DNA of 64,000 nucleotides from Candidatus Rokuibacteriota bacterium (GTDB lineage: Bacteria > Methylomirabilota > Methylomirabilia > Rokubacteriales > CSP1-6): assembly GCA_003220225.1 (NCBI GenBank), contig QHRU01000049.1:21430-85429 (forward strand), in the 5' to 3' direction. The notes beneath the pieces are model-generated. The model was not told the DNA's origin. It worked only from the letters and a program-made list of their open reading frames with translations, and ran no database searches. Position numbers and translations under genes: made by a program. Shown here one piece after another: positions 11,361 to 59,845 of this stretch; within the stretch, counting starts at the first letter, position 1; each line of letters begins with the position of its first letter.

Positions 11361-12493
11361 TGACGTTGCGGCTCGACTGGGAGGCCGCGTACCTCGACGG
11401 CCGGACGGCGGCGCGCCGCCGCGCCACCGTCCACATCACGCGCACGGGGCTCGACATCACGCTGCCCGAGAGCGGCGCGCGGCTGTTCTGGCCCTTCCGC
11501 GAGATCCGCCAGACGCAGGGCACCCACGCCGGCGAGCAGGTGCGGCTCGAGCGCGGCGGCGAGCTGTCGGAAGCGCTGCTGATCGGCGACGTCGGCTTCC
11601 TGTCCGCGGCGCGCGCGGCTGCGCCCGAGGCGGCGCACTTCCACGAGCCCGGCCGCCGCCGTCTCCGCGTGGGGCTCACCTTCGCCGCGCTGGTGGCCGC
11701 CATCGCGCTGGCCGTCGGCATCTACTACGTCGGCATTCCGGCCGTCGCCGCGGTGGCCGCCGCGCGCGTGCCGGTGTCGTGGGAGGAGAAGCTCGGGGGG
11801 GCGATCGTCGACCACTTCGCGCCGCCGTCCGGGCGCTGCGAGGATCCCGTGCGGCAGGCGAAAATCGACGGCATCGTCGCGGCGCTGACGGCGAAGGCGC
11901 GGCCACAGCCCTACACGTTCCGGATCACGGTCGTCAACAGCAGCGTCGTCAACGCGGTGGCCGCGCCGGGTGGCCAGCTCATCCTGTTCCGCGGCCTGCT
12001 GGAGCGCACCGACAGCGCCGAGGAGCTGGCGGGCGTGCTCGCCCACGAGGTGGAGCACGTCCTGCATCGCCACGTGACGCGCGCCATCTTCCAGCAGGCC
12101 TCCACGGGCGTGCTCATGGCCGCGCTCGTCGGCGACGTTTCGAGCGTCGTCGCCTACGGGCTCGAGGGCGCGCGCACGCTCGGCGATCTCCAGATGAGCC
12201 GTGCCGCGGAGGCGGAGGCGGACCGCGAGGGGATGCGGCTGCTCCAGGAGGCCGGGATCGATCCTCAGGGGATGATCACGTTCTTCGAGAAGCTGTCGCG
12301 CCGCGAGGGCGGGCGCGGGGGCGATCCCGTGACGCGTTATCTCAGAACGCACCCCACGACAACGGAGCGGATCGCCACGCTGCGCGCGCTGGCCGCGGCG
12401 GCGCCGAAGCCGGAGCGCCGGCTCCTGCCCGACGACGACTGGAACGACGTCAAGAGCCTGTGCGGGGAGCTGCCGGCGCCGTCGCCGCGGTGA
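11321..12493 (+). CDS. M48 family metallopeptidase
   Basis: HEVEHVLHRH HExxH zinc motif. One TM helix. Annotated start lies inside the REP-like repeat, so the true start may be downstream (TTG at about 11360 or later). Confidence 0.72.
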   Translation: MGMWGPFRGPHLQLTLRLDWEAAYLDGRTAARRRATVHITRTGLDITLPESGARLFWPFREIRQTQGTHAGEQVRLERGGELSEALLIGDVGFLSAARAAAPEAAHFHEPGRRRLRVGLTFAALVAAIALAVGIYYVGIPAVAAVAAARVPVSWEEKLGGAIVDHFAPPSGRCEDPVRQAKIDGIVAALTAKARPQPYTFRITVVNSSVVNAVAAPGGQLILFRGLLERTDSAEELAGVLAHEVEHVLHRHVTRAIFQQASTGVLMAALVGDVSSVVAYGLEGARTLGDLQMSRAAEAEADREGMRLLQEAGIDPQGMITFFEKLSRREGGRGGDPVTRYLRTHPTTTERIATLRALAAAAPKPERRLLPDDDWNDVKSLCGELPAPSPR

Positions 12494-14816
12494 TGAGCCC
12501 GCGCACGCGCCACGGCAGGGCGGGCGTCTCGGTCAGCCGCACCGCGAGCGGGGAGAGCGCGTCGTCGATCGCGTTCGCGATCGCCGCCGGCGGCGAGATC
12601 GCGCCGCCCTCGCCGAGCCCCTTCATGCCGAGCGGGTTGCGCGGCGAGGGGAACTCGAGGTGGACGGTCTCGATCGCGGGCAGGTCGCTCGCGACGGGCA
12701 CCGCGTAGTCCATCAGGCTGCCCGCCAGGAGCTGTCCCTCGGCGTCGTAGGCCATGTCCTCGAAGAGCGCGCCGCCCACGCCCTGCGCGACGCCGCCGTG
12801 CACCTGGCCGTCGACGATGATCGGGTTGATGACCTTCCCGCAGTCGTGCGCGACGACGTAGCGCACGAGCTTCACCGCGCCCGTGTCGCGATCGACGTCC
12901 ACGATCGCGACGTGCACCGCGCTCGCGAAGGTCACCGTCGGCACGTGGTGGTACGCCGTCGCGTCGAAGTCCGGGGTGACGACGCCGGGCCTGGCGAAGG
13001 TCGGGAGGGCCGCCTGCACGACGCGCGCGAAGTCGACGGCGGAGGCCGGCGCGCCGCGGACGAACACGCGGCCGTCCTCGATCTCGAGGTCCTGCGGCGC
13101 CGCCTCCAGCAGCGCGCCCGCCGCCGCCAGCACCTTCGCGCGCACCCGCCGGGCGGCGTCGACGATCGAGTTGCCGGCGGTGACGCCGCTGCGGCTCGCG
13201 AACGTGCCGACGCCGAAGGGCACCCCGGCCGTGTCGCCGCCGGTCACGGTCACCCAGTCGAGCGGCACGCCGAGCGCGTCGGCGGCGACCTGGGCGAACG
13301 ACGTCTCGTGGCCCTGGCCCGAGCACACGGCGCCCGTGGCCACCCGCACGCGGCCGGCGGCGTCGAGGGTGACGCGCGCGCCCTCGAAGGGGCCGATGGC
13401 GGTACCCTCGACGTAGCCGGAGATGCCGATGCCGCGCCAGACCCCGCGCGCGCGCAACGACTCCTGCTCCTTGCGGACGCGGTCGTACTCCGCGGCGGTC
13501 AGCGCGGACTCGAGCGCGGCCGGGAAATCGCCGCTGTCGTACACGAGCGGGTTGCCGTCGCGGTACGGCATCCCGAAGTCGAACGGCAGCTCCTCGGGGC
13601 GGATGTAGTTCTTCCGGCGCACGTCGGCGGGATCCAGCCCGAGCCGGCGCGCCAGACAGTCGACGGCGCGGTCCATCGCGAACACGGTCTCGGGCCGGCC
13701 GGCGCCTCGATAAGGAGCGTTCGGCGTCTTGTTCGTCACGACGGCTCTGACGTCGACTTTCATGTCGCGTATTCGATAGGGCCCGATCAGATGAGCCACG
13801 GTGTTGTAGGGCAGGACGACGCCCCAGACGTTGTAGGCGCCGAGGTCGAGCCAGATGCGGTCGGCGAGGCCGACGATGGTGCCGTCGCGCCGCGCGCCCA
13901 GCCGGATCGTGTGGGTCTGGTGCCGCGCGTGCGCCGCGCCCATCATGTGCTCGCGCCGGTCCTCGATCCACTTGACGGGCCGGCCGAGCGCGCGCGCGGC
14001 GATGGGGATCAGCGCGTCCTCCGGGTAGCCGGACGCCTTGGTGCCGAAGCCGCCGCCGAGGTCGGGCGCGATCACGCGGATGCGGTGGGGCAGCAGCTCC
14101 AGCGCGGTCACCAGCCCCTGCTGGACGAAGTGCGAGACCTGCGTGCTGTTCCACGTCGTGAGCGTCCCGTCGCGCCGGTCCCACGCGGCCACCACGCCCC
14201 GGCCCTCGAGCGGCATGCCGACGTAGCGCTGGATGCGGAACGTCTCCTCGAGCACGACGTCGGCCCCCGCGAGCGCGCGCCCGGCGTCGCCGATGGCGTG
14301 GCTGAAGCCGACGGCGACGTTGGTGCCCCAGTCGGGGTGCACCAGCGGCGCGCCGGCCTCGCCGGCGGTGAGCATGTCCACCGCGGGCGGCAGCGGTGCC
14401 CACTGCACCTCGATCGCCTCGACGGCGTCCTCGGCGCGGCCGCGGTCGTCGGCCACCACCATCGCCACGATCTCGCCGACGTGGCGCACGCGCTGCGTGG
14501 CGAGCGCGTACTGCGGGGCCTGGCGGATGTCGAACTTCACGGCGGCGGCGAGGCCGGGCGGCGGGGCGCCGAAGAGCGGCAGCGGCTTCATCCAGCGCGC
14601 GAGGTCGGCGTGGGTGAAGACGGCGACGACGCCGGGCATCTTCTTCGCGCGCTCGGTCCGAATCGCGACGATGCGCGCGTGCGCGTGGGGCGAGCGGAGG
14701 AAGGCGGCCTGCAGGAGGCCCGGCAGCGTCACGTCGTCCACGAAGCGGCCCTCGCCACGGAGGAAGCGCGGATCCTCCCGGCGAAGGACGGCGGCGCCGA
14801 AATACTTGGCGCCCAT
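12450..14816 (-). CDS. xanthine dehydrogenase family molybdopterin-binding large subunit, form II CoxL-like (AYRGAGR active-site loop)
   Basis: 788 aa. RREDPRFLRGEG N-terminus. Motifs GGGFG and PYRGAGRPE. MoCo-binding C-terminal GEGG motif. No adjacent FAD or FeS subunit genes. Confidence 0.85.
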   Translation of the reverse strand: MGAKYFGAAVLRREDPRFLRGEGRFVDDVTLPGLLQAAFLRSPHAHARIVAIRTERAKKMPGVVAVFTHADLARWMKPLPLFGAPPPGLAAAVKFDIRQAPQYALATQRVRHVGEIVAMVVADDRGRAEDAVEAIEVQWAPLPPAVDMLTAGEAGAPLVHPDWGTNVAVGFSHAIGDAGRALAGADVVLEETFRIQRYVGMPLEGRGVVAAWDRRDGTLTTWNSTQVSHFVQQGLVTALELLPHRIRVIAPDLGGGFGTKASGYPEDALIPIAARALGRPVKWIEDRREHMMGAAHARHQTHTIRLGARRDGTIVGLADRIWLDLGAYNVWGVVLPYNTVAHLIGPYRIRDMKVDVRAVVTNKTPNAPYRGAGRPETVFAMDRAVDCLARRLGLDPADVRRKNYIRPEELPFDFGMPYRDGNPLVYDSGDFPAALESALTAAEYDRVRKEQESLRARGVWRGIGISGYVEGTAIGPFEGARVTLDAAGRVRVATGAVCSGQGHETSFAQVAADALGVPLDWVTVTGGDTAGVPFGVGTFASRSGVTAGNSIVDAARRVRAKVLAAAGALLEAAPQDLEIEDGRVFVRGAPASAVDFARVVQAALPTFARPGVVTPDFDATAYHHVPTVTFASAVHVAIVDVDRDTGAVKLVRYVVAHDCGKVINPIIVDGQVHGGVAQGVGGALFEDMAYDAEGQLLAGSLMDYAVPVASDLPAIETVHLEFPSPRNPLGMKGLGEGGAISPPAAIANAIDDALSPLAVRLTETPALPWRVRGLITAATAPAAPRTGS

Positions 14817-14836
14817 CTAGGCGGACGGGGGCGCGC

Positions 14837-14991
14837 TCAGGCGCGGCTGTCGCGGATGGGAATGATCCAGTCGAGCCACGGCGCGACGGCGGCGATGAAC
14901 AGGCCGGGCAGCGCGACGCCGCTGATGAGGCCGAGGATGCCGAGGAACGTCAGCGAGATCACGGTGACGGCGAGGTCGAGCAGCACGGTCA
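14837..14991 (-). CDS. small hydrophobic peptide (about 51 aa, 2 TM), not in ORF track
   Basis: Hand translation MTVLLDLAVTVISLTFLGILGLISGVALPGLFIAAVAPWLDWIIPIRDSRA. Sits exactly between the RidA stop and the CoxL-like start. Confidence 0.35.
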
Positions 14992-14992
14992 T

Positions 14993-15460
14993 CTACTCGA
15001 CCTCCACGATCATCTCGATCTCGACCGGAATCTGCATCGGCAGCGAGCCCATGCCCACCGCCGAGCGCGCGTGCTTGCCGATCTGCTCGCCGAACACCTC
15101 GACCATGAGGTCGGAGAAGCCGTTCATGACCTTGGGCTGCTCGCCGAAGTCCTCGGTGGCGTTCACCATGCCGAGCACCTTCACGATGCGCTTGACCTTG
15201 TCGAGGCTGCCGAGCTGCGTTCGCACCGTCGCGAGGAGGTTCAGCCCGACGTCGCGCGCGACCTGCGCGCCCTGCTCGGTCGAAAGGTCCTTGCCGACCT
15301 TGCCGCGCGCCGTCATCTTGCCGTCCGCGGTGCGCGTCGGCCCGTGGCCCGACACGAACAGGAGATTGCCGACGCGCACGGCCCCGACGTAGTTCGCGAG
15401 TGGCGTCGGCGGCGTGGGGAGCGTGATGTTCTTGGCCTTGAGATTGGCTTCTGCGCCCAT
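14993..15460 (-). CDS. RidA family protein (YjgF/TdcF reactive-intermediate deaminase)
   Basis: 155 aa with conserved RidA fold motifs (VGMGSLP, FVSG). Confidence 0.78.
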   Translation of the reverse strand: MGAEANLKAKNITLPTPPTPLANYVGAVRVGNLLFVSGHGPTRTADGKMTARGKVGKDLSTEQGAQVARDVGLNLLATVRTQLGSLDKVKRIVKVLGMVNATEDFGEQPKVMNGFSDLMVEVFGEQIGKHARSAVGMGSLPMQIPVEIEMIVEVE

Positions 15461-15504: not shown

Positions 15505-16314
15505 GTGTCACACTACGCCGTGCCCGTCAAACCTCCCGCGGTGATCCCGGTGCCCGCCGCGACGCTCGTGCTGCTCCGCGACCGCCCCGCCGGCGGCTTC
15601 GACATCCTGCTGATGCAGCGACACGCGAAAAGCAAGTTCGCCGCCGGCGACTTCGTGTTTCCCGGCGGCAAGCTCACGCGCGAGGACAATCCACCCGACG
15701 CGCTCCGCTGGTGCACCGGTCTCGATCCCGCGGCCGCGGCGAAGACGCTCGGGCTCGAGGACACCGAGCTGGCGCTCGCGCACTGCATCGGCGTCATCCG
15801 CGAGACGTTCGAGGAGGTCGGTGTGCTCCTCGCCACGTCCGCCGACGGCGGTCCGGTCCGCGTGGCGCCGTCGACGCTGACCGCGTGTCGGCGAGCCTGC
15901 CAGGCGGACAACCGCGCGTTCTGGGAGCTGGTGAAGCGGGAGGACCTCCGGCTCGCCACCGACCGGCTGGTCTACTTCGCCCACTGGATCACGCCCGAGG
16001 GCAATCCGCTGCGCTTCGACACGCGCTTCTTCGCCGCGCCGATGCCGCCGGACCAGACGCCGACGGGCGACGACAAGGAGGTCACCGACCTGCGCTGGCT
16101 CGCGCCGGCCGAGGCGCTCGAGACGCAGAAGCGCGGCCAGATCTCGCTGCGCAACCCGACGATCCGGAACCTGATGCTCTTCACCGACGCGACGTCCACG
16201 GCCGACGCGCTGGCGCGGCTACGTGGTCGCACGGTGACGACGATCGCGCCGCGCATTCTCATGCAGCCGGATGGCACTCGGCGCATCCTGATGCCCGGGG
16301 ATCCGGAGTACTAG
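15505..16314 (+). CDS. NUDIX hydrolase
   Basis: Nudix box GGKLTREDNPPDALRWCTGLDPAAAAKTL...REtfEEvG (REx2EE). 269 aa. Confidence 0.72.
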   Translation: MSHYAVPVKPPAVIPVPAATLVLLRDRPAGGFDILLMQRHAKSKFAAGDFVFPGGKLTREDNPPDALRWCTGLDPAAAAKTLGLEDTELALAHCIGVIRETFEEVGVLLATSADGGPVRVAPSTLTACRRACQADNRAFWELVKREDLRLATDRLVYFAHWITPEGNPLRFDTRFFAAPMPPDQTPTGDDKEVTDLRWLAPAEALETQKRGQISLRNPTIRNLMLFTDATSTADALARLRGRTVTTIAPRILMQPDGTRRILMPGDPEY

Positions 16315-16326
16315 CGGCCGAGATGC

Positions 16327-17724
16327 CTATGTCGCTGGTGCGTCCCTGAGAGAGGCGACCAGTGGATGCAGGACGTCGATCGCGTAACCGAGGTCGAGGC
16401 ACTCTCCGAACCAGGCGGGCCTTGAGGTCTGCGCGTCGATGTGAAGTCCTCGTGCGTAGTTCTGCGCTCGCAGCGTCTCGACGGGGTCGGTTGGCACCGT
16501 AGCCGGCGGCGGGACTTGCGAGAGTAGCTGTCCATCCGGCCGTCGGAATCTCAGCTCTCCATCGGGCTGCCGCTCCACCTGATAGCCCTCCTCGTGGACC
16601 GCGCGGTGGTGGCGGCGACAGAGCATCGCGAGATTCGACAGCGTCGTCGGACCACCGTTGGCCCAGTGCCGGATGTGATGACCCTGACCGAACGGCAGTC
16701 GGCAGCCGGGGAAGCGGCAACCTCTGTCTCGATGCTGGAGCGCCCGGCGCAGTGCCGGCGGAATAGTCCGCGTCCGCGCACCGACGTCCGTAACTCGGCC
16801 AGCTGGGTCGTGTCGCATGACGACGCGGCTCGCATCGCACGCCAGGCGCTGAGACGTTTCTGCAGAAACGCGCGTGCCGGCTTCGAGGACCGACTGACCT
16901 GGCGCGTCCGCGTCGGCGAGCACCTGGGCATCGACGTGGACGACCACCTGGTAGCGCTCCCCCGGCGCACCCGGATCAATGCCGTGGTGGAGCGCCGTCT
17001 CTACGATGAGGGCCAGGGCATCGGCCTGCTGCTGGCCCAGCGTCGGCGGGTCGTCGGCGATGATCAGCCCCGTGCGCGGCAGTCCGTCGGGTGGCGTTTC
17101 CGCGGGAACGTCGCGTCGGCGCTGATCCAGCGCTTCCCGGCCTGCCTCCAGCGCCTTCATGAGGACGGCCCCCGCCTCCGGTTCCAGACGCCCGCGGATG
17201 ACGACCATACCGTCTTCGTCTTGACACACGTGAAGTGTGCGGCTCCGGTGGCGGCGAGTGCTCTCCCGCGCTTCGACGATACGATCGACCCGGCGCCAGC
17301 CCCGGACGATGCGCTCGACGTGTTCGGCGGTGCCCGCCCGGCCGACCTCGAGCAGCCGCTCCTCGGTCTCGGGTGTCGCGACCCGGGTCAGCGCGCGGAC
17401 CTTCGAGTAGGACAGCTCGCCATGCGCGAGCGCCTGGGCGAGCCGCGGCAACGAGCCGAGAGCCCGCGCCACGCGCACCCGTTCGCGCGCCGCGCCGGGG
17501 TCGAGCCCGATGCGCCACGTGAGCCACGCAGCGCACGAGGCGAAGCCGTTGCCCCAGCCGCCGCGGGCGTCGAACTCGCGGATGAGATCGAGCAGGCGCG
17601 CGGTGGCGGCGTCGAGGTGGGCGGAGAGCTTGGCGATCTCGTCGCCGAGCCGCTCGAGCTCCACGAGGTGCGCAGGGGTCGGGACGACCTTGCGAGTGCT
17701 GAGGTTCATCGGCGCGTCCTCCAT
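16327..17724 (-). CDS. HNH endonuclease with DUF222 N-terminal domain (13E12-repeat-type protein)
   Basis: C-terminal HNH: CRFPGCR...HHIRHWANGGPTTLSNLAMLCRRHHRAVHE. N-terminal DUF222-like region. Confidence 0.8.
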   Translation of the reverse strand: MEDAPMNLSTRKVVPTPAHLVELERLGDEIAKLSAHLDAATARLLDLIREFDARGGWGNGFASCAAWLTWRIGLDPGAARERVRVARALGSLPRLAQALAHGELSYSKVRALTRVATPETEERLLEVGRAGTAEHVERIVRGWRRVDRIVEARESTRRHRSRTLHVCQDEDGMVVIRGRLEPEAGAVLMKALEAGREALDQRRRDVPAETPPDGLPRTGLIIADDPPTLGQQQADALALIVETALHHGIDPGAPGERYQVVVHVDAQVLADADAPGQSVLEAGTRVSAETSQRLACDASRVVMRHDPAGRVTDVGARTRTIPPALRRALQHRDRGCRFPGCRLPFGQGHHIRHWANGGPTTLSNLAMLCRRHHRAVHEEGYQVERQPDGELRFRRPDGQLLSQVPPPATVPTDPVETLRAQNYARGLHIDAQTSRPAWFGECLDLGYAIDVLHPLVASLRDAPAT

Positions 17725-29748: not shown

Positions 29749-31896
29749 CTACGCGCGCTTGAGGAGGTCCCGGTCGATCGGCAGCGTTCGGATCCGCTTG
29801 CCGGTGAGCGCGAAGAGCGCGTTGGTCACGGCCGGCGCCACGGGCGGCACACCGGGCTCACCGAGGCCGCCGGGGGCCTGGCCGGAGTCCACGATGATGG
29901 TCTCGACCTTGGGCGCCTCGGCGATGCGCATCATCGGGTAGTCGTGGAAGTTGGACTGCTGCACGCGCCCCTTGTCGAGCGTGATCTTGCCGTAGAGCGC
30001 GGCCGTGAGCGCGTAGATGGCCCCGCCCTCCATCTGGGAGCGCACCTGGTTCGGGTACACCGCGATGCCGCAGTCGATCGCACACACGATGCGGTGCACC
30101 CGCACGCCGCCGTCGGGCGCCACGGAGACCTCGGCCACGTGCGCCGCGTACGAGCCGTACGAGAACGCCACCGCGATACCGCGCGCGCGGCCGGCGGGGA
30201 GCGGCGTGCCCCAGCCCGCGCCCTTGGCGGCGGCGTCGAGCACGGCGAGGTGACGCGGCGCCTTGCCGAGCAGCGCGCGACGGTACTCGTAGGGGTCCTT
30301 GCCCGCCGCGTGGGCCAGCTCGTCGATGAAGGACTCCGTGATGAACGCGTTCTGCGACGAGCCGACCGAGCGCCAGAAGCCGATCGGCACGCCGAAGTCC
30401 TTCTCCACCCACTCCACCCGGATGTTCGGGATGTCGTAGGGATGGTTGCGCGCGCCCTCGACGGCGGCGGGATCGATGGTGCCCTTGGGCGCGCGCCCCT
30501 TCTGGATCAGGATGCCGGGCCCGACGATGCGGTGCCACCAGGCCACGGGCTGGCCGTTGGCGTCGACCGCGGCCTTGAAGACGTTGTACGTCGCCGGCCG
30601 GTAGAAGCCGTGCTGGATGTCGTCCTCGCGCGTCCAGATGACCTTCACGGGCGCGTTGACGGCCTTCGAGGTCTCGACGGCGTCGGTGACGAAGTCGGGC
30701 TCGCCGCGCCGGCCGAACCCACCGCCCAGCAGTGTCGTCACCACCTCCACCCGCTCCACCGGCACGCCGGCGAGCTTCGCGGCGAGCGCCTGATGGCCGC
30801 CCGGGTTCTGGGTCGGCACCCAGAGGGTGACGCTGTCGGGCATGACGTGCGCGGTGGCGTTCATCGGCTCCATGCACGCGTGCTCGAGAAACGGCACCTG
30901 GTAGACGGCCTCGACGACCTTGCCGCCGGCGCCCAGCGCCTGCTCGGCGTTGCCCTCGTTGCGCGCCACCTGGCCCGCCTGCCTGGACATCGCCTCGTAC
31001 TGCTTGCTGATCGCAGCACTGGTGAGCGGGGCCAGGGCGCCCTCGTCCCACGTGACCTTGAGCGCGCGGCGGCCCTGCAGCGCCGACCAGAAGTTGGTGG
31101 CGACGACGGCGACGCCGTTGCTGACCTGCACGACGTGGCGGACGCCCGCCACGGCCTTGGCGGCCGTGGCGTCGAAGGACTGCACCTTGCCGCCGAATAC
31201 CGGGCAGCGCTCGATCGAGGCGATCAGCATGCCCGGCACCTTCACGTCCATGCCGTAGACCGCCCTGCCGTCGGTCTTGACCGGGATGTCGAGGCGGGCG
31301 ATGCCTTCCTTGCCGATGTAGCGGAACTGGTCCTTCGTCTTCAACACCGGGTTCTGCGGCACCGGCAGCTGCGAGGCTTTGTCCACGAGCTGCCCGTACA
31401 TCAGTCGTCGTCCACTCGGACGATGAATGACGACACCCGGCTCCGTTTCCAGCTCGCTCTCCGGAACGTTCCACTCCTGCGCGGCGGCCTGCTTCAGCAT
31501 CTGGCGGGCGGCGGCGCCGGCCTTGCGCCACATCTCGAGGTGGTCGCGCACGCCGCGGCTGCCGCCGTAGGCCTGGTTGCCGGTGACGGGGTTCGCGTAG
31601 AGCTTGGGGTTGGCCGGCGCCTGCTCGATCCGGATCTTGCCCCAGTCGGCGTCGAGCTCGTCGGCGATGATCATCGGCGTCGCGGTCATGGCGCCCTGGC
31701 CCATCTCGGGCACCGAGTTCGTGATCGTCACGACGCCATCGCGATCGATCTTGAGCCACTGGTTGGGCGCGAAGACGCCGGGCGTCTGCTGCGCGGCGGC
31801 GTCCAGCGGGAGGCGGAAGCCGATGACGAGGCCGGCGCCGAGCGCGGCGCCGCCCTTGAGGAGCGCGCGACGGGTGATCTTCGGGTTGCGGTTCAT
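29749..31896 (-). CDS. xanthine dehydrogenase family molybdopterin-binding subunit, IorB / aldehyde oxidoreductase beta-subunit type, TAT-secreted
   Basis: Start moved to [23 protein letters not shown] (twin-arginine signal). 715 aa. Mo-hydroxylase large-subunit domains. Confidence 0.85.
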
Positions 31897-32363
31897 CGCG
31901 TGCCTGCCTTCTTCATCGCGGCCGCCTTGTGGATCGCGGCGCGGATCCGCTGGTAGGTGCCGCAGCGGCAGATGTTGCCGGCCATGGCGGCGTCGATGTC
32001 GGCGTCGGTCGGGCTCGGCTTGGCCGCGAGCAGCGCGGCCGCCGACATGATCTGGCCCGACTGGCAGTAGCCGCACTGCGGGACCTGCTCCTCGACCCAT
32101 GCCTTTTGCAGCGGGTGCTCGCCCTTCGCATCGAGCCCCTCGATCGTGGTGACGCGCCGGCCGCGCGCGGCCGAGGTGGGCGTCACGCACGCGCGCACGG
32201 GCTGGCCGTCGAGGTGCACGGTGCACGCGCCGCACTGCGCGACGCCGCACGCGTACTTGGTGCCGGTGAGGCCGGCGGCCTCCCGGATCGCCCAGAGCAG
32301 CGGCATCTCGTTCGGGACGTCGAGCTGCTGTTGCCTGCCGTTGATCGTCACCGGAATCGCCAT
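31893..32363 (-). CDS. (2Fe-2S)-binding protein, Mo-hydroxylase small subunit (IorA/CoxS-like)
   Basis: Two [2Fe-2S] cysteine clusters: [11 protein letters not shown] and [10 protein letters not shown]...CRCGTY. ATGA overlap with the IorB start. Confidence 0.85.
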
Positions 32364-32374
32364 GGGCTGCTCCT

Positions 32375-33405
32375 CTACGGGGTGAGCACGATCTTGCCGA
32401 ACTGCTTGCCCTCGGCCAGGCGGGTCTGGGCGGCCGCGCCGTCCTTGAGCGGAACCACCTCGTCGATGATCGCCTTCAGGCGCCCCTGGAAGAAGAGGCG
32501 CATGACGTCGTTGAACTCCTTCCGGTTGGCCATCGTGGAGCCGATGATGTGCACCTGCTTCCAGAACACGAGCGGGATGAGCGTCTCGCCGACCGGCCCC
32601 GAGGTCGAGCCGCACGTCACGAGTCGGCCGCCGCCCTTGAGCGCGCGGATCGAGTCCTTCCACGTGGCCGCGCCGACGTTCTCGATGACGACGTCCACGC
32701 CGCGCTTGTCGGTGGCCTCGAACACCGCCTTCGTCCACTGGGGGTTCGTCTTGTAGTTGATGCCGACGTCAGCGCCGAGCGTCTTGGCGCGCTCGAGCTT
32801 CGCATCGCTGGACGAGGTCACGATCACGCGCGCGCCGCAGAGCCTGGCGATCTGCACGGCGGTGGACGACACGCCGCCCCCGACGCCGATGACGAGCACG
32901 TCCTGGCCCGGGCCGACCTTGCCCTGGGTCACCACCATGCGCCACGCCGTCATGTTGGTGAGGACGAAGGACGCGGCCTCTTCGTCCTTCACGTGGGCCG
33001 GCAGCGGCAGCACGTTGTCGGCGCGCACGGCCACGAGCTCGGCGAGGCCGCCGCGGACGTGCTCGCCGAGGATGCCGTATCTCACGCAGAGGCTGTCCTC
33101 GCCCGCCGCGCAGAACTCGCAGCGGTCGCACGTGAGGTTCGGGTTCACGACCACGCGGTCGCCGACCTTCACGCCCTGCGCCGCCGCGCCGACCTCCACG
33201 ACCTCGCCCGCGATATCGCAGCCGGTCCAGAAGGGCAGCGGCGTCTTCAGCGTGGGAATGCCCTCGCGGACGAACAGGTCGAGGTGGTTCAGCGCGCACG
33301 CCTTCACCCGGACGAGAACCTCGTGCGGCGCGATCGTGGGATCCGGAACGTCCTCGTACCTGAGCTTGTCGGGACCGCCGAACTCGTGGAAGAGGAGCGC
33401 GTTCA
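32375..33405 (-). CDS. zinc-binding alcohol dehydrogenase family protein (MDR superfamily)
   Basis: GxGxxG NAD site [10 protein letters not shown]. Catalytic and structural Zn Cys motifs (CALNHLD, CDRCEFC). Confidence 0.8.
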
Positions 33406-52984: not shown

Positions 52985-54766
52985 ATGGTCCTCTTCTTCA
53001 TCGCGTCCGGGCTCTCGCTCATCTTCGGCGTGACCCGCGTCGTCAACTTCGCGCACGGGTCCTTCTACATGCTCGCCGCCTACCTCGCCTACACGCTGGC
53101 GGCGGCGCTGCCGCTGGGCGGCGCGTCCTTCTACGTGGCGGTGGCCCTCGCCGCGCTCGCCGTGGGCGCGCTCGGGACGGTGGTGGAGGTGGGCCTCCTG
53201 CGCCGCGTGTATCGTGCGCCCGAGCTCTACCAGCTGCTGCTGACCTTCGCGCTCGTGCTCGTCGTCTCCGACGTCGTCAAGCTGGTCTGGGGCAGCGAGA
53301 ACAAGACAGGGCCGAGCGCGCCCGGGCTCGGCGGCGCCGTCCGCATCGCGGGCCAGCTGGTGCCGACGTACGACCTCGCGCTCATCGCGCTCGGGCCCTG
53401 CGTGGCCGCGGCCCTCTGGTGGCTGCTCTATCGCACCCGTTGGGGCGTGCTCATCCGCGCGGCCACTCTGGACCGCGAGATGGTGGCGCTGCTGGGCGTC
53501 GACCAGGCGCGGCTGTTCACCGGTGTGTTCGCGCTCGGCTCGCTGCTCGCAGGGCTGGCGGGAGCCCTTCAAGTGCCGCGGCAGGCGCTCACCACCGTGA
53601 TGGACGCGGCGATCATCACCGAGGCCTTCGTGGTCGTCGTCGTGGGCGGCATGGGCTCGGTGCCCGGCGCGCTCCTGGCGGCCGTCGTCATCGGCGTCAT
53701 CGACGCTTTCGGCGTGCTCGTGCTCCCGCGCGCGTCGCTCGTGCTGACGTTCGTGGTGATGGCCGTCGTGCTCGTCGTGCGTCCGTGGGGTCTGCTGGGG
53801 CGGCCCGAGGCCCAGGCGCGGTCGGCGGGCGGCGCGATCACCGCCGGCCGCGGCGTCGGCGTCCCCCGCTGGCTGATCGCCGTCCTCGTCGCGGTCCTGC
53901 TCGTCGTGCCGCCGCTGCTGCCCACGTTCTACGTCTGGGTGCTCGTCGAGATCCTCGCGTTCGCGCTCTTCGCGGCGAGCCTCCACCTCCTGATGGGGAC
54001 GGGCGGCATGGTCTCGTTCGGCCACGCGGCGGCCTTCGGCCTGGGCGCGTACGGCGCGGCGCTGCTCGTGCGGTGGGCGAAGGCGCCGATGCTCGTCGCG
54101 CTCGCGGCCGCGCCGGTGACGGCCGCGCTGGCCGCCGTGGTCATCGGCTTCTTCTGCGTGCGGCTGTCGTCGATCTACTTCGCGATGCTCACGCTCGCCT
54201 TCGCCCAGATCGCCTACGCGATCGTGCACCAGTGGTACGACGTGACGGGCGGTGACAACGGCCTCCTCGGCATCTGGCCCGCGCCCTGGCTCGCGTCGCC
54301 GGTCCGCTACTACTACCTCGCCCTCGCCGCGTGCGGCGCCGGTCTCGCCGCGCTGGCTGCGATCGGCCGCGCGCCGTTCGGGCTCACGCTGCGCGCCGCG
54401 CGCGACCACGCGCGCCGCGCGGAGGCGGTCGGGATCGACGTGCACGCGCACCAGTGGCGGGCCTTCGTCGTCGCCGGCTTCTTCGGCGGGCTCGCGGGCG
54501 GCACCTTCGTGTTCCTCAAGGGCAGCGTGTTCCCCGAGTCGCTGGCGGTGCCGGTCTCGGTGGAGCCGCTCGTGATGGTGCTGCTGGGGGGCGTGCACTC
54601 GCTGGCGGGCGCGCCGCTCGGCGCCGCGCTCTACAAGCTGCTCGACACCGTGGTGACGCGTTACACGGAATACTGGCAGCTCGTGCTCGGCGTCATCCTC
54701 GTGGCCCTGGTGCTTGTGTTTCCGCGCGGGATCCTCGGCGTGCTGGGGGCGCGCGAGCGTGGCTGA
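52985..54766 (+). CDS. fused branched-chain amino acid ABC transporter permease (LivH-LivM fusion)
   Basis: 593 aa with two permease modules. The true start likely lies about 15 codons upstream at a non-ATG codon. Confidence 0.8.
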   Translation: MVLFFIASGLSLIFGVTRVVNFAHGSFYMLAAYLAYTLAAALPLGGASFYVAVALAALAVGALGTVVEVGLLRRVYRAPELYQLLLTFALVLVVSDVVKLVWGSENKTGPSAPGLGGAVRIAGQLVPTYDLALIALGPCVAAALWWLLYRTRWGVLIRAATLDREMVALLGVDQARLFTGVFALGSLLAGLAGALQVPRQALTTVMDAAIITEAFVVVVVGGMGSVPGALLAAVVIGVIDAFGVLVLPRASLVLTFVVMAVVLVVRPWGLLGRPEAQARSAGGAITAGRGVGVPRWLIAVLVAVLLVVPPLLPTFYVWVLVEILAFALFAASLHLLMGTGGMVSFGHAAAFGLGAYGAALLVRWAKAPMLVALAAAPVTAALAAVVIGFFCVRLSSIYFAMLTLAFAQIAYAIVHQWYDVTGGDNGLLGIWPAPWLASPVRYYYLALAACGAGLAALAAIGRAPFGLTLRAARDHARRAEAVGIDVHAHQWRAFVVAGFFGGLAGGTFVFLKGSVFPESLAVPVSVEPLVMVLLGGVHSLAGAPLGAALYKLLDTVVTRYTEYWQLVLGVILVALVLVFPRGILGVLGARERG

Positions 54767-55514
54767 GCGCGCCCCCGTCCTGGAGGTCGAGAACGTCCGG
54801 CGCGCGTTCGGCGGGGTGCGCGCGGTCGACGGCGTGTCGTTCGCCCTCGAGCGCGGCGAGATCCGCGCCCTCATCGGCCCCAACGGCGCCGGCAAGTCAA
54901 CCTTCTTCGACATCCTCACGGGTCAGCTCCGCGCCGACGCGGGCGAGGTGCGCTGGCGCGGTCGTCCCATCGGCGGGCTGCCGCCGCACGCGATCTGGCG
55001 CCTGGGCATCAGCCGCACCTTCCAGATCACGGCCACGTTCGCGACGCTCACCGTCCTCGAGAACGTGCAGGTCGCGCGGCTGTCGCACGCGGGTCGGAGC
55101 CGCGTGCTGCTGATTCCCGCCGCGCGGCTGGAGATCGCGCCGTCGCGCGCGCTGCTGGAGCAGGTGGGGCTCGCCGAGCAGGCCACGCGGGCGGCCGGGG
55201 TGCTCGCCTACGGCGATCTCAAGAAGCTGGAGCTCGCGATCGCGCTCGCCAACGATCCCGCGCTGCTGCTGCTCGACGAGCCCACGGCGGGGATGGCGCC
55301 CGGCGAGCGCGGCGCGCTGATGGCGCTGACGGCGCGGATCGCGCGTGAGCGCGGGCTCACCGTGCTCTTCACCGAGCACGACATGGACGTCGTCTTCGCG
55401 GTCGCCGAGCGGATCATGGTGCTGCACCAGGGCCGCGTGATCGCCGACGGTCCGCCGGCCGCCGTGCGGGCCGACCGCGAGGTGCAGGCCGTGTACCTCG
55501 GCGAGGATCCGTGA
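54759..55514 (+). CDS. ABC transporter ATP-binding protein (LivG-like)
   Basis: Walker A GPNGAGKST. ABC signature. GTG start overlapping the permease stop. Confidence 0.85.
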   Translation: MAERAPVLEVENVRRAFGGVRAVDGVSFALERGEIRALIGPNGAGKSTFFDILTGQLRADAGEVRWRGRPIGGLPPHAIWRLGISRTFQITATFATLTVLENVQVARLSHAGRSRVLLIPAARLEIAPSRALLEQVGLAEQATRAAGVLAYGDLKKLELAIALANDPALLLLDEPTAGMAPGERGALMALTARIARERGLTVLFTEHDMDVVFAVAERIMVLHQGRVIADGPPAAVRADREVQAVYLGEDP

Positions 55515-56203
55515 TGTTCGAGCTGGCGGACGTCCACGCGGTCTACGGCCGCAGCCGCGTGCTGCACGGCGTGAGCCTGCGCGCCGGCGAGGGCGAAGTG
55601 GTCGCGCTGCTCGGACGCAACGGCGCCGGGAAGTCCACCACGCTCAAGGCGATCGTGGGCGTCGTCGAGGTGACGGCGGGCGACATCCGCTTCGAGGGGC
55701 GCTCGCTGCGCGGCGTGCCGACGCATCGCGTGGCCCGGCTCGGGATCGGGCTCGTGCCGGAAGACCGGCGGATCTTCGCCGATCTCACGGTGGCGGAAAA
55801 TCTCTTGGTAGGTGCGCGGCCGGACAGCGGCTGGACGGTCGATCGCGTCTTCGGCCTCTTCCCCAAGCTCGCCGAGCTCGCGCGCCAGCGCGGCGGCAGC
55901 CTCTCGGGCGGCGAGCAGCAGATGCTGACGATCGCACGCACGCTGATGACGGGCCCGCGCCTGCTGCTCCTCGATGAGCCCTCGGAGGGGCTGGCGCCGG
56001 TCGTCGTCGCCGCGCTCGCCGAGAACGTGGCCGCTCTGAAGCGCCAGGGGCTGACCATTCTCATGGCCGAGCAGAACGTGAAGTTCGCCCGCCGGCTGAC
56101 CGACCGCGCCTACATCATCGAGAAGGGCCAGATCCGCTTCGAGGGGACGATGGCCACCCTCGACGCCGACGAGTCGCTGCGCCGCGCGTACCTGTCTGTT
56201 TGA
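55511..56203 (+). CDS. ABC transporter ATP-binding protein (LivF-like)
   Basis: Walker A GRNGAGKST. Signature LSGGEQQ. Confidence 0.85.
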   Translation: MMFELADVHAVYGRSRVLHGVSLRAGEGEVVALLGRNGAGKSTTLKAIVGVVEVTAGDIRFEGRSLRGVPTHRVARLGIGLVPEDRRIFADLTVAENLLVGARPDSGWTVDRVFGLFPKLAELARQRGGSLSGGEQQMLTIARTLMTGPRLLLLDEPSEGLAPVVVAALAENVAALKRQGLTILMAEQNVKFARRLTDRAYIIEKGQIRFEGTMATLDADESLRRAYLSV

Positions 56204-56412
56204 ATGGGGGGCCCCGAAATGGCCCCCCATACCCCCCAACGCTCGTCGCGCCCCGGCGCAGCCGTGGCGCGCCTCGACCCCCAACGCTCGTCGCGCCCCG
56301 GCGTAGCCGTGGCGCGCCTCGACCCCCAACGCTCGTCGCGCCCCGGCGCAGCCGTGGCGCGCCTCGCCCCCCAACGCTCGTCGCGCCCCGGCGCAGCCGT
56401 GGCGCGCCTCGG
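56204..56412. repeat. GC-rich REP/MITE-like repeat, copy C (reverse orientation): hairpin 56206-56228, followed by 4 tandem copies of a 45-bp unit (56233-56412)
   Basis: The hairpin is the reverse complement of the copy A/B hairpin. Unit is cccccaacgctcgtcgcgccccggcgcagccgtggcgcgcctcga, repeated 4 times with 1-2 mismatches. Confidence 0.85.
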
Positions 56413-56459
56413 TCGCGGGTATGATTTTTGCGGTCTGTTCCGGTCGATGGCGGGCGGAG

Positions 56460-56736
56460 GACCAACTGCCTGTTCGTCGAGGCCGCGCTCGTCGCCAACG
56501 CCGTCGTCGACATCACCGCGGTGGCCGAGCGCAAGCGCCTGGCCATGCAGGCATTCCCGAGCCAGCAGACGGAGTTCGACTATCCGCGGGCGATGGACGG
56601 CCTCAACACCTACCGCTCGCTGCACCGCGGGCGCGCCCGCGGTCTCGCCGAGGCGTTCCACGTCGCCGAGCTCGACGTGTACCGCCGGCTGTTCGACCTG
56701 ATCGCGATCGGCCGGCGCCGCGCCGCGACGGCGTAG
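56460..56736 (+). pseudogene. C-terminal remnant of a PIG-L/LmbE family deacetylase
   Basis: ...CLFVEAALVANAVVDITAVAERKRLAMQAFPSQQ... matches the C-terminal 'kk.a.l..h.sQ' region of LmbE-like proteins. No N-terminal catalytic half. Abuts the tandem repeat. Confidence 0.35.
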
Positions 56737-56807
56737 CGCGCGCTCGCGCGCGAGGGTTGCGTCCTTCCGCCCGATTTGACACACTCGCGCGACGGAGGCC
56801 CCGCGCG

Positions 56808-57983
56808 ATGAAGACGCTCGTCCGCAACATCGGCACGCTCGTCAGCGGCGACATCGGCCGGCCGCTGCTCGACGCCGACGCACTCGTCATCCGCGACGGG
56901 CAGATCGCCGCCGTGGGCCGCGGGCTCGACGAGGACGCCGACACGGTGATCGACGCGCGCGGCACCACGGTGCTGCCGGGGCTGATCGACTCGCACGTCC
57001 ATCCGGTCTTCGGCGACTTCACCCCACGCCAGCGCACCATGGACTTCATCGACTCCGGCATGAACGGCGGCGTGACCACAGCGATCTCGGCGGGCGAAGT
57101 CCACCTGCCGGGCCGGCCCAAGGACATCGTCGGCCTCAAGGCGCTCGCGATCGTCGCCGCGAAGTCCTACGCGAACTTCCGGCCCGGCGGCGTGAAGGTC
57201 CACGCGGGCGCGCCGATTCTGGAGCTCGGCATGACCGAGGGCGACTTCGCCGAGATGGCGGCGGCCGGCGTGCGACTCGTCGGCGAGATCGGCCTCGGCT
57301 CGGTGAAGACGGGCAAGGACGCGGCGCCCATGGTGCGCTGGGCCCGGGCGCACGGCATGACGGTGACCATCCACACGGGCGGGCCGTCCATCGCGGGCAG
57401 CAGCCCGATCAACGCGGACGTCGTGCTGGAGGCGGCGCCCGACGTCGTCGGCCACGTCAACGGCGGCACGACGTCGATGACGCCGGCCGAGATCGAGCGG
57501 CTCGTCGCGACGGACATGGCGCTCGAGATCGTGCAGTGCGGAAACATGAAGACCGCGCTCCACACGCTGCGCGTCGCGCGCGACGCGCGGGCGGCGCACC
57601 GGCTGATCATCGGCAACGACGCGCCCTCGGGAACCGGCGTGATCCCGCTCGGCGTGCTCCGCACGCTGAGCGTGCTGGCCGCGCTCGGCGGGTTGCCGCC
57701 GGCGGAGGCGATCGCGTGTGCCACCGGCAACACGGCGCGCGTGTACAAGCTCGACTGCGGCGTGATCGCCGCCGGCCGAGCCGCGGACCTCGTGATCTGC
57801 GACGCGCCGACCGGCTCGATCGCCTCCGACGCGCTCGGCGCCCTGGCCGCCGGCGACCTGCCGGGCATCTCGATGGTGCTGATCGACGGCCGCATCACGA
57901 TCGGCCGCAGCCGCAACACGCCGCCCGCCGCCCGCGCGGCCGAGGTCGTCAAGGGGCACGGGCCCGCGGGAGCCGGCCACTAG
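56808..57983 (+). CDS. amidohydrolase family protein, enamidase-like cyclic amidohydrolase
   Basis: RBS GACGGAGG. N-terminal MKTLVRNIGTLVSGDIG...VLPGLIDSHVHPVFGD metal-binding motif, typical of enamidase/imidazolonepropionase-like enzymes. Confidence 0.7.
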   Translation: MKTLVRNIGTLVSGDIGRPLLDADALVIRDGQIAAVGRGLDEDADTVIDARGTTVLPGLIDSHVHPVFGDFTPRQRTMDFIDSGMNGGVTTAISAGEVHLPGRPKDIVGLKALAIVAAKSYANFRPGGVKVHAGAPILELGMTEGDFAEMAAAGVRLVGEIGLGSVKTGKDAAPMVRWARAHGMTVTIHTGGPSIAGSSPINADVVLEAAPDVVGHVNGGTTSMTPAEIERLVATDMALEIVQCGNMKTALHTLRVARDARAAHRLIIGNDAPSGTGVIPLGVLRTLSVLAALGGLPPAEAIACATGNTARVYKLDCGVIAAGRAADLVICDAPTGSIASDALGALAAGDLPGISMVLIDGRITIGRSRNTPPAARAAEVVKGHGPAGAGH

Positions 57984-59203
57984 TGCGCGTTCGGCCGTTC
58001 CGCGGTTATCGCTACGCGATCGGCAGGGAGCGAGAGATCAGCAAGGTCGTCGCGCCGCCGTACGATCAGATCAGCGCCGAGCAGCAGGACGCGCTGTACG
58101 CGATGAGTCCCGCCAACATCGTTCGCGTCTCGTACCCCAGGGACGACGGCGACAAGTACGCGCGGGCGCGCGCCACGCTGGACGCGTGGCTGGCCGAGGG
58201 GGTGTGGGGGCAGGAGGAATCGCCCGCGATCTATCCCTACCATCAGACCTATCGTGTGGGCAGCCGGGAGGTCACGCGCGTCGGCCTCGTCGCGCTCGGA
58301 CAGGTGACCGACTACGCGGGCGGCGAGGTGCTGCCCCACGAGCGCACTCACGCGGGGCCGAAGCAGGACCGCATGCGGCTGCTCGAGGCGACGGGGGCGG
58401 ACACGGGACTGCTCTTCATGGTGGTCGCCGACGCCAGCGGCGCCCTGCTGGAGGCGTCGAGGCCCGGCGGCGAGCCCATCGCGGAGGCGCGCGACCTCAG
58501 GGGCGAGCGCCATCGCCTCTGGCGCGTGACCGACGCGGCGGCGGTCGCGCGCGTCCAGGCGGCGCTCGCCGCCGCCCGCGTGATCATCGCCGACGGCCAC
58601 CATCGCTACGAGACGGCGGTGGAGTACGCGCGCCGGCATCCCGGCGCCGACGACAAGCTGATGGCGTTCTTCAGCCTCGACGCGCCGGGGCTGACGATCT
58701 TTCCCAACCATCGGCTCGTCCACCGGGTGGACGGGTTCTCGCTCGCACGATTGAGCGCGGGCGCGCGGCGCTGGTTCGAGGTGGCGCCGCTCGCCGATCC
58801 GCTGGCGTTCCGACCGACCAACCGCGCGCTCGGCGTCGTCACCGCCGATAGCGCGGTCACCCTGACGCTCCGGCCCGACGCCTTCGACGCGCTGCCGTGG
58901 CCGGCCGGCACGTCGCGGGCGTGGCGCGAGCTGGCGGTGTCGATCCTGCACGAGGGCGTGCTGAAGCCGCTCGGCGACGTCTCCGACGAAAGGCTCGACG
59001 CCGGGACCCACGTGGAGTACACGGCGGACCAGGAGGAGGCGGTGCGCCTGGCGCGCGCCGGGCGCTATCAGGCGGCGTTCCTCATCGCCCCGACCACGCT
59101 CCCGGAGCTGCAGGCGGTCGTGCGCGGCGGCGAAGTGCTGCCGCAGAAGTCGACGCACTTCTATCCGAAGCTCCTGGACGGTCTGGTCTTTCATCGTATT
59201 TAG
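57983..59203 (+). CDS. DUF1015 family protein
   Basis: GTG start overlapping the upstream stop. DUF1015-like motifs IYPYHQ, PHERTHAGPKQDR and IADGHHRYETA. Confidence 0.62.
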   Translation: MRVRPFRGYRYAIGREREISKVVAPPYDQISAEQQDALYAMSPANIVRVSYPRDDGDKYARARATLDAWLAEGVWGQEESPAIYPYHQTYRVGSREVTRVGLVALGQVTDYAGGEVLPHERTHAGPKQDRMRLLEATGADTGLLFMVVADASGALLEASRPGGEPIAEARDLRGERHRLWRVTDAAAVARVQAALAAARVIIADGHHRYETAVEYARRHPGADDKLMAFFSLDAPGLTIFPNHRLVHRVDGFSLARLSAGARRWFEVAPLADPLAFRPTNRALGVVTADSAVTLTLRPDAFDALPWPAGTSRAWRELAVSILHEGVLKPLGDVSDERLDAGTHVEYTADQEEAVRLARAGRYQAAFLIAPTTLPELQAVVRGGEVLPQKSTHFYPKLLDGLVFHRI

Positions 59204-59272
59204 CGTCGGAGCGGCTTCGCAGGGCTCCGCCGCTCGACGTTCGGGCGACGGTGGCGCGAGGAGACTGAGAAC

Positions 59273-59845
59273 ATGGTGAAGATCCGCAAGCTGGTCACGC
59301 TGGTCGAAGAGATCCTGAGCGACGGCGGCCGGGAGGCCAAGCACCCGGTGCGCAAGGCGGCGGCGGTGGTCGTGCTCGAGAACCCGTTCGCCGGGCGCTT
59401 CGTCGACGACCTCACGCCGCTCATCGACGCGGGCGAGGAGCTGGGGGCGCTCCTGGCCAAGAAGGCGACCGAGGCCCTCGGCGCGCCCGCCGAGTCCTAT
59501 GGAAAAGCGGCGATCGTGGGCGAGCAGGGGGAGTACGAGCACGCGGCGGCGCTCCTGCATCCGAAGCTCGGCGCGCCGCTCCGCGCGGCGGTCGGCGGCG
59601 GCAAGGCCATCATCCCGTCGGCGAAGAAGCTCGGCGGACCCGGGACGGGGATCGACGTGCCGCTGCACTTCAAGGACGCCGCGTTCGTGCGCACCCACTA
59701 CGACGCCATGGAGGTCCGCATCCCCGACGCGCCGCGCGCCAACGAGATCGTGCTGGCGATCGTCGTCACCGACGGCGGCCGGCCCCACCCGCGGATCGGC
59801 GGCCTCACCAAGGACGAGGCCAGGAAAGAGGACGGCCAGCGATGA
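59273..59845 (+). CDS. amino-acid-synthesis family protein (AA_synth / DUF1185)
   Basis: 190 aa. N-terminal MVKIRKLVTLVEE...VVLENPFAGRFVDDL pattern. Confidence 0.5.
   Translation: MVKIRKLVTLVEEILSDGGREAKHPVRKAAAVVVLENPFAGRFVDDLTPLIDAGEELGALLAKKATEALGAPAESYGKAAIVGEQGEYEHAAALLHPKLGAPLRAAVGGGKAIIPSAKKLGGPGTGIDVPLHFKDAAFVRTHYDAMEVRIPDAPRANEIVLAIVVTDGGRPHPRIGGLTKDEARKEDGQR

Follow-up and report, generated by a model that had tools for sequence, protein, structure and literature searches.

Introduction

Two forms of CoxL, the large subunit of aerobic carbon monoxide dehydrogenase (CODH) and its relatives, have been defined: form I, recognized by the active-site loop AYxCSFR and the gene order coxMSL together with the accessory genes coxDEFGHI, and form II, recognized by the signature AYRGAGR and the gene order coxS-L-M (PMC7645674). 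CoxL-like genes that do not encode CODH also rank near the top of the oxidoreductase genes of soil genomes in both abundance and expression, with unknown function, and Diamond et al., who reported proteins of this kind as abundant in the genomes and proteomes of soils, suspected them of acting on small organic molecules (PMC6784897). Here, we analyze a CoxL-like gene in a stretch of 64,000 nucleotides from a Candidatus Rokuibacteriota bacterium (contig QHRU01000049.1, positions 21,430 to 85,429; hereafter the window), where a molybdopterin-binding large subunit of the xanthine dehydrogenase (XDH) family (hereafter L) is encoded in a three-gene operon without genes for the FAD-binding medium subunit (M, encoded by coxM) or the 2Fe-2S small subunit (S, encoded by coxS). 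We find that this orphan state was produced by an old deletion in an L-M-S operon, that such losses have recurred, and that L has kept its catalytic residues, and we consider it probable that L is a functional molybdenum (Mo) hydroxylase for a substrate other than CO that pairs with M and S subunits made elsewhere.

The closest described systems each share part of this picture. With form II CoxL, L has in common the XDH-family fold and domain set, a loop of the type xYRGAGR and a substrate that is probably not CO, but its operon differs in having PYRGAGR, an ancestral L-M-S order, leading genes for a Rid1-like protein and a 50-aa membrane protein, and deleted M and S genes. The form I Mo-Cu CODHs of Oligotropha carboxidovorans (1N5W) and Mycobacterium smegmatis (8UEM) provide the best solved-structure match, with the catalytic Gln and Glu aligned, whereas L is without the AYxCSFR loop, the copper-binding Cys and coxD/E/F/G genes, has another gene order, and scores under the model cut-offs. 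The quinoline and nicotine enzymes QorL (1T3Q) and KdhL (7DQX) score equal to CODH, and the ancestral L operon, like theirs, would encode a cytoplasmic L/M/S-type enzyme; however, identity is only about 35–40%, the loop is another one, and no quinoline or nicotine catabolic genes lie near L.

Operon structure and loss of the partner genes

The Rid-family gene, the gene for a 51-aa peptide and the L gene form one three-gene operon on the minus strand, as the first-pass annotation of this DNA had read it. The operon, its borders and the scar of the deletion are laid out as follows:

14993–15460, minus strand: Rid-family gene (product of 155 aa, similar to the Rid1 subfamily), at the head of the operon
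14837–14992, minus strand: gene for a 51-aa hydrophobic, predicted membrane protein, second in the operon
12450–14816, minus strand: XDH/CoxL-family molybdopterin-binding large subunit L (788 aa, three Pfam domains)
12450–12480, minus strand: deletion scar, from DNA alignments of the window with the orthologous loci L003, L011 and L067
11321–12493, plus strand, convergent: M48 peptidase gene (Pfam Peptidase_M48), downstream border of the operon
15505–16314, plus strand, divergent: NUDIX hydrolase gene (Pfam NUDIX), upstream border of the operon

In this window of 72% G+C, the G+C content at third codon positions (GC3) is 0.95 for Rid, 0.98 for the peptide and 0.96 for L, and the codon-position G+C pattern is typical of genuine genes. 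An AAGGAGG lies upstream of the Rid ATG, the Rid TAG directly abuts the peptide ATG (TAGATG, the junction already noticed at first reading) with a GGAGG 8 nt upstream of that ATG, and 20 nt separate the end of the peptide gene from the start of L. Downstream, the 3′ ends of L and M48 overlap by 44 nt on opposite strands (12450–12493); upstream, the NUDIX gene is kept in synteny in all Rid-peptide-L loci.

The earlier description of L as an orphan holds for the whole window: no M or S gene adjoins it, and no CoxM-like open reading frame (ORF) was found in the 64 kb by tblastn and profile hidden Markov models (HMMs) in six frames with filters off (best E 0.75). The sole CoxS-like ORF of the window, at 31896–32768, lies next to a different, IorB-like large-subunit gene (CoxS HMM E 7e-43), and the six-frame HMM search of the whole 64 kb found no FAD or FeS subunit genes just beyond the intergenic regions that had been inspected at first. 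A 2Fe-2S (and usually an FAD) subunit or domain encoded with the large subunit, a membership feature of the family, is thus missing for L and present in the syntenic orthologues.

These orthologues reveal what was lost. In loci L003 to L005, L011, L067 and L086 (83% identical), the synteny is that of the window, with NUDIX on one side, Rid-50aa-L-M-S in the middle, and M48 and DUF898 on the other, followed by genes for a periplasmic binding protein and PolX. Between L and M48, the intact orthologue has genes for an FAD subunit of 288 aa and a 2Fe-2S subunit of 158 aa; stop and start codons overlap at both L/M and M/S, and M48 overlaps coxS by 50 nt on the opposite strand. More distant orthologues (60–70% identity), found in Rokubacteria and in metagenome-assembled genomes (MAGs) assigned to several other phyla, also have the order L-M-S, and because close and distant orthologues agree, we take this order to be ancestral. 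In DNA alignments, window L is homologous to intact L up to about codon 772; the final ~10 codons and the TGA of window L correspond instead to the end of coxS, its TGA included, and are read in the frame of coxS. The scar reads CCCCGCACAGGCTCTTGA in the window and CCCCGCACATCGACCTGA in the coxS of L003, and identical M48-antisense sequence then follows in both.

The orphan state is therefore derived: since the tail of window L aligns with the end of coxS, a deletion of ~1.3 kb removed nearly all of coxM and coxS. An old deletion in an ancestral Rid-peptide-L-M-S operon took out the M (FAD) and S (2Fe-2S) genes together, so that the reading frame of L now runs into the final ~10 codons of coxS and its stop codon. 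The right-hand breakpoint lies just upstream of the sequence that M48 needs, and it was probably set by the antisense M48 overlap, the 3′ stretch of coxS being retained because the same DNA encodes the C terminus of the convergent M48 protein.

Age and recurrence of the loss

The junction is not an assembly artefact, because it recurs in six independent clade B assemblies (88–93% identical, with synonymous divergence of up to 0.7) and because L also abuts M48 in clade C, in at least 10 species-level genomes that include long-read MAGs. In neighbor-joining (NJ) trees, bootstrap values reach 100% for each of clades B, C and F, 92% for A+B+C and 47% for B+C. A single deletion in the common ancestor of clades B and C is likely, since four derived substitutions and a PALP motif close to the C terminus are common to both, and since the terminal sequence ...APRTAS is still found in one member of clade C.

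Other losses arose independently. At locus L029, M and S were lost between L and a GAF-PAS-HisKA gene, which follows S in related loci; L028 has a different downstream context, and each of these two is a separate single loss; and in clade F, L adjoins Liv-type ABC transporter genes and is without Rid, peptide, M and S. Locus L024 (8340–9209), from a Rokubacteria genome, has kept M and lost only S, with a convergent RNase HII-like gene directly after M. Among the species-level genomes with enough flanking sequence (about 50), the orphan state is found in about 25, the full L-M-S order in 24 and L-M in a single one. Loss of both M and S is recurrent, having occurred in at least four lineages.

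Selection on the orphan large subunit

The ratio of nonsynonymous to synonymous substitution rates (dN/dS, NG86 method) has a median of 0.14 in clade B, with a pairwise range of 0.06–0.21, next to medians of 0.19 in clade C, 0.18 in clade F and 0.17 in the intact-operon clade. Across the alignment, 346 columns are at least 95% conserved in orphan and intact groups alike, nine are conserved in L-M-S and variable in orphans, and 41 show the reverse. Gln226, Glu736 and the PNAPYRGAGRPE loop are invariant in orphan and intact L; across the family, 57 of 58 members have both catalytic residues, Gln and Glu, unchanged, the exception being a frameshifted long-read contig. Changes specific to B and C number only four and are conservative; the C-terminal tail past residue ~775 varies among clade B members. 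Judged from these substitution patterns, orphan L is under purifying selection, with no sign of decay or of remodeling after the loss of its partners.

Relaxed or convergent evolution was not found in orphan L, with the exception of Leu705Ala (window L numbering). This substitution is fixed in the non-sister orphan clades B and F and absent from intact-operon L, and it could reflect convergence after partner loss, or chance.

Identity of the large subunit

L has the a/b-hammerhead domain and the two molybdopterin-binding domains by which the family is recognized, with scores well above cut-offs for PF01315 (Ald_Xan_dh_C, 91 bits), PF02738 (MoCoBD_1, 262 bits) and PF20256 (MoCoBD_2, 277 bits), and it carries no signal peptide. 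Its nearest solved structures are the large subunits of M. smegmatis CODH (7e-147) and quinoline 2-oxidoreductase (1.2e-146). The segments NSTQ and GLGEGG of L align with TTQ and GIGES of 8UEM, which places the catalytic Gln and Glu; this active-site pair is Q240 and E763 in O. carboxidovorans numbering.

At the level of named enzymes, L falls under every NCBIfam cut-off. The best model is that for the aerobic CODH large subunit, group 5 (NF040766, 818 vs 950 bits), and the form I CoxL equivalog TIGR02416 scores 541.5 bits vs a cut-off of 991. The active-site loop reads NAPYRGAGRPE, with APYRGAGR where form I has AYxCSFR, and the orthologous operons are ordered L-M-S with no accessory genes, rather than coxMSL with coxDEFGHI. 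Both the loop and the TIGR02416 score bear out the initial placement of L outside form I CODH. Assignment to form II, also made at that stage, stands only in part. The reported AYRGAGR loop is absent as an exact string, as L has Pro where form II has Ala, a replacement that is fixed throughout the family; PYRGAGR matches the form II signature at 6/7 positions and is thus nearly identical to it, but it is not the canonical loop, and neither is the L-M-S order of the intact orthologous operons the coxSLM order of form II. The best reading of these comparisons is that L would belong to a separate clade of the CoxL-like radiation, as a putative Mo-hydroxylase that does not act on CO.

The Rid1-like protein and the small membrane protein

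Rid1 proteins have demonstrated imine and 2-aminoacrylate deaminase activity, and an equivalent of RidA Arg105 is the feature of deaminase-competent Rid1-3 proteins (PMC5619798). The window protein matches PF14588 (62 bits) and PF01042 (57 bits), and among named proteins of solved structure it is closest to PA0814 (3.6e-18) and ACIAD3089, both of the Rid1 subfamily. It is similar to them in size and keeps the key arginine (KHARSAVG aligns with GHARAAVG of PA0814), but it is about 35–40% identical to these deaminases and does not reach the archetypal RidA cut-off (TIGR00004, 41 vs 106 bits). The original label RidA is therefore right as to the Rid family and has to be narrowed, as the protein is Rid1-subfamily-like and not an archetypal RidA. 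Functionally, it would probably hydrolyze an imine or enamine intermediate in the pathway of L, which is a plausible role. To our knowledge, Rid1 proteins have not been linked to Mo-hydroxylase operons before, and our literature search for orphan coxL, or for Rid with Mo-hydroxylases, returned nothing specific.

The 51-aa peptide is a real and conserved small protein that is restricted to Rokubacteria and predicted to reside in the membrane. Its dN/dS over 30 loci is 0.36 in frame vs 1.2–1.7 in the other two frames, and 15 residues are invariant (ISL.FL.I...A.PGLF...AP.L...P). Most of residues 1–46 score above 1.6 in Kyte-Doolittle windows of 19 residues (grand average of hydropathy 1.5), and AlphaFold2 predicts one helix over residues 2–43 (pLDDT, the predicted local confidence score, 85). 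The family has no Pfam or NCBIfam match. It is common in metagenomes of the Rokubacteria type, with 1334 clusters when grouped at 90% identity, each annotated as hypothetical, but narrow in sequence space, with only 21 representatives at 50% identity among 1.84 billion proteins; none of the 21 joins the peptide to a larger partner in an informative way. One sequence, P0258 (156 aa), carries the peptide at its C terminus (residues 108–156) and may be a Rid-peptide fusion or have a mis-called start.

The peptide gene is present in every locus with a Rid gene, in intact and orphan operons alike, and always lies 1–104 nt upstream of L. In many relatives, a gene for a ~390-aa protein with 5TMR-LYT, PAS and HisKA domains stands between Rid and the peptide gene (4622–5812 in L020, 4690–5829 in L029 and 4643–5848 in L034). 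In both L029 and L034, the stop of this inserted gene overlaps the start of the peptide gene, and a GAF-PAS-HisKA gene comes after the operon; no ATPase domain was detected in the ~390-aa product. Conservation of the adjacency of Rid and CoxL, singled out for checking at first pass, is accordingly partial: it is seen in the syntenic orthologues, but the sensor gene is inserted in many relatives and clade F has no Rid, and the association of the peptide with L is tighter than that of Rid with L. As to function, our guess is that this small protein possibly serves as a membrane tether for the enzyme.

Partner subunits and competing explanations

We favor the reading that L is a functional non-CO Mo-hydroxylase which, orphaned by the old M/S deletion, pairs with M and S made elsewhere, and hold it to be somewhat better than an even prospect. 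L would most likely bind the molybdopterin cofactor, hydroxylate a substrate other than CO, and pass electrons to 2Fe-2S and FAD subunits that come from another locus and are shared with a paralogous enzyme. Trans pairing is the most economical explanation because L is under purifying selection with an unchanged active site, which supports it indirectly. Several points weigh on the other side. The search for a trans M/S partner, which covered the 64-kb window and metagenome relatives of CoxM and not the rest of the genome, identified none; a relocated M-S pair of this family was not seen either, as the CoxM relatives of at least 55% identity with enough upstream sequence all have L directly upstream. 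The sharing of subunits among paralogous XDH-family enzymes is, as far as we know, not an established mechanism. In addition, the dN/dS values come from a simple method applied to a genome with extreme GC3, and the monophyly of B and C, from which one deletion for both would follow, reaches no more than 47% in the NJ bootstrap.

On four high-GC metagenome contigs (L137, L142, L153 and L164), coxM-coxS pairs occur without L, with no large-subunit gene within up to 5 kb of flanking sequence on each side. The contigs are actinobacterial-looking, and the pairs, 45–50% identical to Rokubacteria M and S, mirror the orphan L; pairs without L were seen only among such distant relatives.

Orphan L might instead act alone, or deliver electrons to a non-canonical acceptor through the 51-aa membrane protein or some other redox protein, with no need of 2Fe-2S and FAD subunits. 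Such an arrangement would fit the retention of L through at least four losses of M and S, the third large subunit of the window, which sits in a conserved operon never with M/S yet with an F420-type oxidoreductase, and the constant position of the peptide, which directly precedes L also in loci where a further gene lies between it and Rid. However, intact L-M-S operons have the peptide just as orphan ones do, so that it is no replacement for M and S, and orphan L shows no remodeling, its clade-specific changes being the four conservative ones; moreover, every characterized XDH-family enzyme that we know of passes the electrons of its molybdenum cofactor (Moco) to two 2Fe-2S clusters. We therefore regard a stand-alone L as improbable.

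Less credence still is due to two further explanations. Were L a decaying remnant on its way to a pseudogene, the absence of the partner genes and the variable tail past residue ~775 in clade B would be expected, but ORFs are intact in all orphan clades despite the synonymous divergence reached within clade B (up to 0.7), dN/dS (0.06–0.21) is as low as or below that of intact operons, and the catalytic motifs are invariant; on the last two grounds we rejected the pseudogene reading. It is equally hard to credit that L is a true aerobic CODH large subunit, whether of form I or form II, although the source databases call its homologues 'carbon-monoxide dehydrogenase large subunit', a CODH model scores best in NCBIfam and M. 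smegmatis CODH is the top match in the PDB. Set against these labels are the PYRGAGR loop with no Cys-Ser-Phe, scores under the cut-offs of both TIGR02416 (541 vs 991) and NF040766 (818 vs 950), a quinoline oxidoreductase that scores the same as CODH, and an ancestral order, L-M-S, that is neither coxMSL nor coxSLM and comes with no coxDEFG genes.

Other large subunits and neighboring features of the window

Two more XDH-family large subunits are encoded in the window:

29749–31896, minus strand: IorB-like XDH-family large subunit (Pfam MoCoBD_1/2 and TAT_signal)
60831–63140, plus strand: third XDH-family large subunit (Pfam and NCBIfam)

This agrees with the initial count of three such proteins, of which only the IorB-like one has a cognate FeS subunit gene. 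The three are distant paralogues (at most 43% identity) in quite different operons, and the earlier suggestion that they may form a diversified family acting on N-heterocycles is plausible. The IorB-like protein has a twin-arginine translocation (TAT) signal, and the 2Fe-2S subunit gene directly upstream of it, at about 31893–32360, has Fer2 and Fer2_2 domains; together they are an ordinary periplasmic or membrane-side enzyme.

The third large subunit is 43% identical to L, has the loop AYRGVG, and is an orphan and the last gene of its operon (52985–63140, plus strand). Before it come genes for a Liv-type ABC transporter, Amidohydro_1, DUF1015, AA_synth (PF06684; its PDB relatives are uncharacterized) and an F420-type luciferase-like oxidoreductase (LLM). 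Related operons (L166, L167 and L169) sometimes have an isochorismatase before the F420-type LLM, and a GntR regulator, and no M or S genes occur in the three orthologous loci inspected (72–82% identical). The context is catabolic-looking, and this is a second stably orphan large subunit. Orphan large subunits are a regular feature of these genomes, which fits a shared electron-transfer module and is no proof of one.

The nearest proteins to those of the window all come from uncultivated Rokubacteria/Methylomirabilota MAGs from soil and groundwater. No Rfam family, Moco riboswitches included, matched at the gathering threshold anywhere in the 64-kb window, and no sigma-70 promoters or terminators were usefully placed around the operon above shuffled expectation. 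Beyond the NUDIX gene, a DUF222/HNH endonuclease gene (16327–17724, minus strand) lies in a stretch of ~1.6 kb that separates NUDIX from a DinB_2 gene; at locus L001 (90% identical), the NUDIX and DinB_2 genes overlap by 4 nt. The HNH element looks like a recent mobile insertion.

Implications

Going one step further, and with rather less confidence than for the pairing of L with M and S made elsewhere, we can envisage a hub-and-spoke arrangement in Rokubacteria. One FAD/2Fe-2S module encoded elsewhere might serve several substrate-specific large subunits, of which the window would hold at least two, and the conserved 50-aa protein might be a fourth component, not recognized before, that places L at the membrane. 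Such sharing would explain how coxM and coxS could be lost repeatedly in cis without harm to L.

For researchers working on Mo-hydroxylases and on soil metabolism, these results mean that a large-subunit gene without partners can represent a functional state kept by selection and not a mis-annotation or a relic, that this state arises repeatedly through deletion of the partner genes, and that the operon adds a small membrane protein that had gone unrecognized. If subunit sharing proves true, separate counts of coxL, coxM and coxS would misjudge the number of distinct enzymes per soil bacterium.

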